64,000 nucleotides of DNA from Saccostrea echinata (lineage: Eukaryota), in NCBI RefSeq assembly GCF_033153115.1, contig NW_026889771.1, forward strand, positions 3,162,001-3,226,000, read 5' to 3'. The notes below the pieces were generated by a model. That model was not told the DNA's origin. It saw only the letters and a list, made by a program, of their open reading frames with translations, and did not search any database. This document shows, one piece after another, positions 43,501 to 46,500 of this stretch. The stretch's first letter is position 1. The number at the start of each line of letters is the position of its first letter. A program made the position numbers and the translations under genes.

Positions 43501-46500
43501 CGGACTACCTGTTAAAATTAATAGTATTCTTGAATTTACATAATGCAGGAAAAAAGAAAGAAAAAAAATAAAATAAAATAATAATAGAAAAGATATATTT
43601 ATCTATATCTTGTTTTTAGAATTCATAAAATCATAACTCATTGTGTATTTAACCAAAATAAAGTAATATGAACATTATTTAAATCCACATTTCAGAGAAT
43701 GTAAACATCATTCAGAATTGACCTTAACTTCAAAACAAACTTCATTTGCAGACAGAGGTCTTAATTAATTAATCACAATGTGACAGATAAAGATAAATGG
43801 TTTGGATTTTCTTCAAGAGCAAAGTTAATTAATCCCAAGAGACTCGTTGCAGCTTTCATAGTTCGTAATAGGAACATTCTCAGCAGTTATCTCTCTTTGC
43901 CCATTCATTCTTATATAAAGTTAAGGAATCTACCCCCACCCCAGATGACATAGAGAACCAAACTTTAGCATCAAAATATGTCTTACTGCCTATTCAACCA
44001 ACATACCAAATTTAAACTTAATTAGTAAACCTTAAAAAAAGTTACTAGAAAACAAAAACAGAAAATTTGTGGACAGAAGAATGACAGACAGACAGATGAA
44101 TGGACAGACAGACAGACAGAGTGATTACTATAGGGCACCCACAAATCCTTGCGAGGCCCTAATTAATTAAAAGAGAAATTAAGTAATACATCCATCAAAA
44201 CAACTTACAATGACCTTTCAGGGGTGTGCAATTAAAAAAATTAAGTACTAGCCCACGGGCTAGTGGCAGCAATAAAGTTACTAGCCCCAAGTAAAAAGTT
44301 ACTAGCCCAAATGTAAAGGGGGGGGGGGGGGGGGTAACAGAAAACTGTTTATTGTTGAAAAAGTCAGGGTTTTAATGTCATTAATTCTTTTTAAAATTAA
44401 AGTTTAATTCTCACTAGTAAGATTAAATCATGTATAAATTAATAATTATGATAGAAAATAAAAATGAATTCAAATAAATTATCTTATCTACAACGAAATG
44501 AAAATCATTTTCTCATCTTAATTAATTGATTATTTAATGATTATTTAATTAATCATTAAATACGCTGGAAATATATTTTATGTAAACCACATAACACTTA
44601 TCTTTCAGTTGATTGAGTGATCGTAAATAATTTAATGAGATATCTGCATGTGTATTTACCATGAGCAGAGGAATAGAGGAAATTTGGATTAGATAAAAAT
44701 GATCGTTTTTGGAAGTAAATAAGTCAGGTTAGATAAGTTAGATACGATTATGGAGATTAACGATTAACGAAGAGTAGGAACATGCTGCCAAAATTTTTTC
44801 ATTTTTTTGAGAATTTAATAGCAAATAGTGAGTGAAAATACCGATAGTAATTTTCATGTACAGGTAAACTTCGTTATCTCGACATCGACGGGACCATCGG
44901 AAGATGTCGAGATATCCGAGGTGTCGAGATATCAGAGTTGAGACTTGACGTCCAAGAGTAAAAATACCGATAGTAATTTTCATGTACATGTATTACAATG
45001 GTAGTTTTAATTTTTACTAGCCCAAGGGGCTACCTCTGTGCAGAAAACTACTAGCCCGACCCAAAAAAATGGTAGCCCCGGGCGTCGGGCGATGCTAATT
45101 GCACACCCCTGACCTTTGATGTATTATGATTTTATAATGTTGTCTGTTTCACATTTCTCGTATATGTACTGTACCCATCTCTTTCACATTTCTGGTATAT
45201 GTTCTGTACCTGCATCTTTCACATTTCTAGTATTGTACCTGCATCCTTCACATTTCTAATACTGTACCTCATCTTTCATATTTCTAGTACTGCATGTACT
45301 TGCATCCTTCACATTTCTAATACTGTATCTCATCTTTCACGTTTCTAGTACTGTACCTGGATATTTCACATTTCTTGTACTGTACCTTCATCTTTCACAT
45401 TTCTAGTACTGTACCTGCATCTTTCACATCCTAGTACTGTACCTGTATCTTCCACATTCTAGTACTGTACCTGCATCTTTCACATTTCTAATACTGTATC
45501 TAATCTTTCACATTCTAGTACTGTACCTGCATCTTTCACATTCTAGTACTGAACCAGCATCTTTCACATTTTTAGTACTGTACCTGCATCTTTCACATTC
45601 TAGTACTGTACCTGTATCTTTCACATTCTAGTACTGTACCTGTATCTTTCACATTCTAGTACTGTACCTGTATCTTTCACATTCTAGTACTGTACTGGCA
45701 TCTTTCACATTCTAGAACTGTACCTGTATCTTTCACATTCTAGTACTGTACCTGTATCTTTCACTTTCTAGTACTGTACTGGCATCTTTCACATTCTAGT
45801 ACAGTACTGGCATCTTTCACATTCTAGTACTGTACTGGCATCTTTCACATTTCTAGTACTGTACCTGTATCCTTCACATTTCTAGTACTGTACCTGCATC
45901 TTTCACATTTCTAATACTGTATCTAATCTTTCACATTCTAGTACTGTACCTGTATCTTTCACATTCTAGTACTGTACCTGCATCTTTCACATTCTAGTAC
46001 TGTACTGGCATCTTTCACATTTCTAGTACTGTACCTGCATCTTTCACATTTTCTTATACCTGCCTCTTTCATATTTTCTTATAACCTTATCTTTCATTTC
46101 TTATACCTGCATCTTTCACATATCTGCATTCCTCTTGCCATTTGATTCCACTGCTGACATTCTTATCATTGATGGCTGCCACACCAAATATAACATCATC
46201 CAGAGCTTGATCAATAGTGTCTGCATGTAGAACAGTGTGGTTCATATTCCCTGTTCTTCTCAATATATGTATTTCACCCTGAATAAAGAATTACTAGATG
46301 TCAAGCTAAATGGTGAATATTATAATTAAATATTTGCATACTCTCCGTTTTCTCCCACTATGAATCTGCACTCACCAGTTGCGTTTATAGCACCACGAAC
46401 GCAACTTCTTCTGGTATAAATGTATTTCGTTTCTTTCACTGTTGCAGTACAAGCTACTCCACTTAAATAACACATTCAGAAGTATATATATGGGATGTTG

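Follow-up and report, generated by a model that had tools for sequence, protein, structure and literature searches.

An intronic minisatellite repeating an exon's own splice donor in a gp130-like receptor gene of the oyster Saccostrea echinata

When the 5′ splice site of an exon is repeated dozens of times at the head of the following intron, which copy does splicing use, and what would become of transcripts that used another? This question is raised by a minisatellite in the window analyzed here, a 64,000-nt stretch of the Saccostrea echinata genome, in which a coding exon of a receptor gene runs directly into tandem copies of its own donor junction. We propose that this intronic minisatellite arose locally, as a reiteration of the donor of the exon next to it, and that the extra donors are likely silent bystanders, with splicing committing to the first donor. 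We put the probability of this reading at roughly 0.8.

The repeated junction and its host gene

The exon concerned is a 172-nt coding exon on the minus strand (46107-46278), supported by spliced contigs and by tblastn. It encodes the second half of the penultimate FN3 domain (residues 475-531 of the database protein P0005), a placing that comes from the alignment of a relative, P0003, to gp130. Its authentic 5′ splice site, CAG/GTATAA (46101-46109, minus strand; the slash marks the exon end), is cut between 46107 and 46106 in spliced contigs. The phase-1 intron that follows (42220-46106, minus strand) is 3887 nt long, contains the array and leads, through the acceptor at 42220, to the exon that starts the last FN3 domain (42055-42219, minus strand).

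In the array (45140-46121, minus strand), 35 units follow one another head to tail from 46121 to about 45140; their length varies from 22 to 35 nt and is 28-29 nt in most of them. TRF described it with a period of 28, 29.8 copies, 87% matches and a score of 1191, with periods of 25 and 35 nt at the edges, and placed its start 12 nt inside the exon. Unit 1 spans the exon-intron boundary, which is supported by spliced contigs, and consists of 15 exon nucleotides plus the start of the intron; the 5′ half of the unit (ATGTGAAAGATGCAG) is identical to the last 15 nt of the exon. An earlier note on this DNA had described about 35 tandem copies of the exon's donor junction, and both the number and the origin at the exon-intron junction held up. 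It had given the unit as the last ~15 nt of the exon plus GTA; the 15 nt stood, but the intronic portion is not just GTA and extends to about 10-14 nt.

Units 1-3 carry an authentic-type tail (GTATAAG or GTTATAAG), the 31 units after them have GTACAGTACTAG in its place, and the final unit is worn, in agreement with the previous description of the units nearest the exon as transitional. The authentic-like units 2-3 (46049-46098, minus strand) offer AAG/GTTATA at +21 and CAG/GTATAA at +47. Among the 31 derived units (45154-46048, minus strand), 17 read CAG/GTACAG; this amounts to 17 of 35 units, about half and not "most", as had been stated. The AG/GT is kept in 22 of the 34 downstream units and absent from 12. 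With the real donor included, the 23 AG/GT sites divide into 17 CAG/GTACAG, 2 CAG/GTATAA and four single variants, and the authentic 9-mer recurs exactly in only one downstream unit (+47).

A search of the 923-Mb genome with a 22-nt pattern of the unit returned 13 exact matches, 11 in this array and 2 in the array of a paralogue, and the reversed control gave 0 matches in the same genome. Since the unit pattern is confined to this junction and to the sister gene, the array was born at the junction of this exon.

Other descriptions of the array were considered. A dispersed satellite matching the exon by chance was rejected by the genome-wide pattern search, and a coding repeat by the stop that is reached after six codons. 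A ladder of pseudo-exons inside the array is unlikely, the longest pyrimidine run there being 4 nt.

Further repeats occur elsewhere in the window. Arrays of a satellite-like unit of 155-179 nt, a kind common in oyster genomes, lie at 5845-9388, 20066-20716, 32012-32509, 40914-41388 and 55207-55820. Contigs reach a depth of 3000-11500 on a short intronic repeat at 48917-49487, which gives the impression of a tRNA-derived short interspersed element. A 97-nt two-copy duplication (36041-36225) lies right after the donor at 36233, with the donor itself unrepeated, and a 90-nt version of it follows duplicate exons at 13588-13816 and 23099-23327.

The host gene (30314-64000, minus strand, with its 5′ end beyond the window) encodes P0005, a protein of 1292 aa. 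A search with the exon led to four Saccostrea proteins, and three S. cucullata proteins share the exon; P0005, the cluster member that matches the window exons, uses the first donor in its database model, and in the cluster of P0005 each gene is represented by a single protein. The six best PDB matches of P0001, which is 92% identical to P0005, are all IL-6 receptor beta (gp130), with E 5.9e-10 over residues 131-627, and P0003 matches gp130 at E 1.2e-12. These matches bear out the gp130-like host that the earlier note had named. With the whole of P0005 as the query, Robo3 was the sole match at E<=0.001, an outcome that probably reflects dilution of the score by the long low-complexity tail of the protein. 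When Pfam was run on seven single exons, the last FN3 exon alone passed a cut-off. In the P0003 alignment, the junction falls on the gp130 stretch immediately before the last FN3 domain, consistent with the claim that a product truncated here would lack that domain and the transmembrane helix. The WSXWS motif of class I cytokine receptors was not found in the alignment, where a degenerate YYSDP stands at the place of the gp130 YWSDWS. Therefore, we call the gene gp130-like and not a proven member of the class I cytokine receptor family. IL6R/gp130-like receptors have been reported in molluscs (PMC13203501).

The end of the cytoplasmic tail (30314-30750, minus strand) contains a 24-nt coding repeat. 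In P0005, YVP occurs 12 times, in most cases as DYVPNGTT, and the YxxQ-type motif YNVQ occurs twice; these multiplied tyrosine motifs could presumably be docking sites. Downstream of the gene, two extra partial copies of the receptor 3′ end lie on the minus strand at 12500-15300 and 22100-25700. They contain the transmembrane exon with the two exons after it and most of the last exon, but lack the two exons that lie in between. The transmembrane exon of the copy at 25660 is interrupted by a TAA, and in the copy at 14724 a TAA apparently falls early in the exon that follows the transmembrane exon; both copies are probably decaying duplicates.

Donor choice in transcripts

Transcript evidence came from the assembled contigs of five runs (X1-X5), which represent at most three samples from two studies, with tissue and condition not on record. 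A wide view omitted X4, a close-up of 45115-46450 omitted X1, and X6 was left out of both; the wide view covered 15 of 57 joints, and the close-up covered 22 of 28 loose ends and 27 of 29 pieces. None of the contigs is on record as RNA, but they contain spliced GT-AG joints and therefore derive from RNA.

At contig resolution, 46107 was joined to 42219 in all five runs examined. In the wide view, this joint was present in four of four runs at a depth of 11.2-21.3, and eight other GT-AG introns of the host gene were also spliced among the 15 joints listed. In the close-up, all four runs leave the exon at 46107 and continue into the next exon, and the junction is crossed unbroken by one X3 contig (5027 nt) and one X4 contig (4422 nt). 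All 3 joints of the close-up were inspected, and none leads from an array donor to the exon at 42219; likewise, no truncated or array-joined contig was found among those listed from the five runs. Contigs running from the exon into the intron were absent from X2, X3 and X4, with a depth of 0 at 46060-46104. At contig resolution, the most upstream donor dominates, which gives no support to the earlier proposal that downstream donors are used. The mapping of junctions suggested as a check on that proposal found 46107 alone in use among the contigs listed, at a resolution that is blind to rare or decay-sensitive forms.

Eight listed contigs lie inside the array (39-142 nt, depth 2.6-5.9, tails of at most 5 nt). 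These low-depth contigs come from X2-X5, lie wholly or almost wholly on the array and fit either unspliced RNA or DNA; they show similar units in other individuals. In X1, an unspliced contig covers the 3′ end of the intron (42192-42504) at a depth of 5.5, compared with 11.2 for the spliced form and 2.4-3.7 for the listed fragments of other introns. It stops short of the array, and X1 has no cover at 45491-46061. This contig counts against a silent array.

Donor strength was assessed by consensus matches and U1 duplex energy only. All pseudo-donors reach at most 6 of 9 consensus matches, and the real donor also has 6 of 9. By crude U1 pairing, CAG/GTACAG (-9.4 kcal/mol) pairs better than the authentic donor (-7.2 kcal/mol).

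Any transcript that passed the first donor would meet an in-frame TAA (46087-46089, minus strand), which lies one base before the second donor and upstream of every downstream AG/GT, and would end in ...YVKDAGIRNER-stop. The same 537-residue product results from all 22 downstream AG/GT sites, with the stop at codon 538 of 1292. On both points, the ...KDAGIRNER-stop read-through and the premature stop from any downstream donor, the earlier note was right. We also surveyed read-through at eight valid donor rows of this gene (37540, 36233 and 33733 left out): at the six ectodomain donors covered, the stop is reached after 2, 2, 3, 6, 8 and 14 residues, and in the other two rows after 18 and 36. 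Since fast stops are the norm at the ectodomain donors of this gene, the GIRNER-stop is ordinary.

Origin of the array and alternative readings

Nine copies of the exon were found in the genome (G000:C22:2841000-3232000 and C16:5511000), eight of them clustered within about 370 kb, which suggests a local expansion of gp130-like receptors with at least nine exon copies. The array is present in the two closest copies only, and the seven others have a single junction. A metagenome scan for relatives of the exon gave 487 pattern matches, of which 0 were confirmed. The exon copy at C22:3006600 has an in-frame TAA.

The sister gene, 129 kb away, carries a related array of 19 units in which both unit types are mixed, with 14 AG/GT sites and a read-through peptide and stop unlike those of the window gene. 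The array ends share a worn unit and flank in both genes, and the flanking introns are 88-89% identical. Copy number is 35 versus 19, a comparison of length between paralogues, not individuals. The array thus appears to be older than the gene duplication and to have turned over freely since. Tail peptide, unit order and copy number, all of which a decoy function would need, are not shared between the paralogues. In one X5 contig of 83 nt, the units follow an order that is absent from the window and resembles the start of the paralogue array. The paralogue exon, with 6 differences in 172 nt, was not among the close-up contigs listed, which does not imply silence, and no contig of the sister gene was seen.

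In the sister gene (G000:C22:3047000-3109000, L011-L017), two cytoplasmic exons are separated by a 20-kb gap, and the 143-nt exon at 33875-33733 is unmatched. Its database model, P0001, has 720 aa and a short cytoplasmic tail. The short tail recalls Drosophila Eye transformer/Latran, a non-signalling short receptor (PMC6320922), but the gene may equally be a decaying copy.

Overall, we provide a putative course of events for the array. Slippage or unequal exchange would have produced a tandem duplication of a junction piece of ~25 nt, and a 28-29-nt variant unit would then have arisen. After the subsequent gene duplication, the two arrays would have turned over independently, giving 35 units (3 authentic-type, 31 derived and 1 worn) here and 19 mixed units in the sister gene. 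The exon-proximal donor would be picked first, by analogy with intron 7 of human F7 (IVS7), and no pseudo-donor beats its consensus score. A transcript that leaked past it would carry seven junctions after the stop, six of them seen in contigs and the last taken from P0005, with ~2.3 kb of coding sequence behind it. A premature stop upstream of junctions makes a transcript a target of nonsense-mediated decay, under both the junction-based and the long-3′-UTR models. With the stop at codon 538 of 1292 and seven junctions downstream, leak transcripts would likely be removed in this way, and for that reason the array would be cheap and tolerated.

The alternative that survives best is a low-level leak without a regulatory role, in which the pseudo-donors at +47, +21 and +72 serve in a few percent of transcripts and decay slightly lowers receptor output; we consider this unlikely. 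The +21 and +47 sites of units 2-3 are the likeliest leak sites, with their use not seen in contigs, and the +47 site is the authentic 9-mer and is predicted to be about equally accessible. Contigs would miss such transcripts, since assembly drops rare forms and decay depletes them, so minor use of an array donor could still occur. A small leak also stays plausible because human 6-16 and CBS use two pseudo-donors beside the real one (PMC1557585). However, no leak form is among the contigs listed from the five runs, and in the same source F7, LMNB2 and PDGFA are restricted to the first donor.

Very unlikely, in our view, is the reading that a secreted decoy (residues 1-531 plus GIRNER) is made by way of the downstream donors or of read-through into the intron and that array length tunes the membrane-to-soluble ratio, as the earlier note had suggested. 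Since the cut lies ahead of the last FN3 domain, the ligand-binding part would remain in the product, which could fold. Human gp130 has soluble antagonists made by splicing or alternative polyadenylation (PMC8801523), humans have many tandem repeats with an effect on splicing (PMC10078293), and X1 has its unspliced intron-end contig. However, a search for AATAAA and ATTAAA found 0 in the array. Within the intron, AATAAA occurs only at 44353, 42575 and 42416, the first being 1753 nt in, and the 3 found in the 2912-nt remainder compare with 3.0 expected by shuffle, a chance number that tells against the secreted ectodomain. Since the array is without either of these poly(A) signals, and seven junctions and ~2.3 kb of coding sequence lie beyond the stop, a transcript from a downstream donor is likely to be a decay target rather than the source of a secreted decoy; a secreted form would require escape from decay or cleavage within the intron. 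Additionally, none of the contigs listed is truncated or array-joined, the tail peptide differs in the paralogue, and the stop is identical from every downstream donor, so extra copies add no product. Tuning by length is further opposed by F7 minigenes, in which donor choice was the same from 1 to 12 copies (PMC1557585). If true, a length-tuned soluble decoy would be a new way of making a cytokine-receptor antagonist, with the individual decoy level set by array length in a farmed bivalve. A more elaborate version, in which infection or stress shifts splicing into the array or cleaves the intron, so that a decay-escaping secreted GIRNER ectodomain is made and array length sets the amount of decoy as a heritable JAK-STAT dial, we regard as a long shot.

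We give hardly any credence to a selective account of the derived GTACAGTACTAG unit, in which the palindromic core of the unit masks the pseudo-donors by folding back on itself and selection favored the spread of this self-masking variant. In its favor, the predicted fold of the array RNA is better than that of all 20 shuffles (z -2.4), and the derived donors are predicted to be less open than the authentic-type donors (mean unpaired 0.29 vs 0.48) and than in each of 25 shuffles. Against it, 6 of the 10 other authentic donors in the host gene are equally closed (0.16-0.32), the paralogue keeps 8 authentic-type donors, to which 6-nt accessibility there gives no advantage, and the shuffles destroy periodicity and so provide no test of selection. 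As modelled, folding may help the first donor win.

Relation to known donor-spanning minisatellites

Our literature search found no report on a minisatellite and splicing in Saccostrea, and the locus may be undescribed, though its kind is known. We regard its significance as small, that of one further junction-spanning minisatellite, in a mollusc. The two paralogous arrays, with their different mixes of exact and altered donors, are nevertheless a natural test of first-donor choice in molluscs, and the array can likely serve as a marker within an immune receptor gene.

The oyster locus is a donor-spanning minisatellite, and both human and amphioxus genes offer earlier examples of this kind. 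Its host is gp130-like, as in the systems that produce the soluble isoforms sgp130, sgp130-RAPS and sgp130-E10 (PMC8801523), and a cut at the junction would remove the membrane anchor. However, those isoforms come from stable transcripts that arise through alternative splicing or polyadenylation, whereas the oyster contigs listed show no such transcript and the array holds no AATAAA or ATTAAA. In amphioxus, "mirage" minisatellites occur in Adh3 and in the globins BflGb6 and BflGb9, and splicing is undisturbed by them (Ebner et al. 2010, PMC3087553). Their length instability has been shown between haplotypes; that of the oyster array is seen between paralogues only.

The closest comparison is with human F7, where IVS7 carries a 37-bp VNTR of 5-9 units, with CBS IVS13, 6-16 intron 2, LMNB2 and PDGFA intron 4 as related cases (Borensztajn et al. 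2006, PMC1557585). F7 uses the most upstream donor alone despite stronger downstream sites of up to CV 91, as do LMNB2 and PDGFA their first donors, and 6-16 and CBS also use two pseudo-donors. In F7, copy numbers from 1 to 12 left donor choice in minigenes unaltered, and only sites of perfect consensus competed with the first donor. The tests of this first-donor scanning rule were made in mammalian and not in molluscan cells. The oyster array differs in belonging to a mollusc gene, in its 35 units compared with the 5-9 of F7 (6-16 has 25 pseudo-sites), in the changes at +3 to +6 that set most of its copies apart from the authentic donor, in the related array of its sister gene and in the putative status of its pseudo-donors. 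In the F7-type human arrays and the oyster array alike, unit 1 lies over the exon-intron boundary, the donor is reiterated, and the upstream donor is used.
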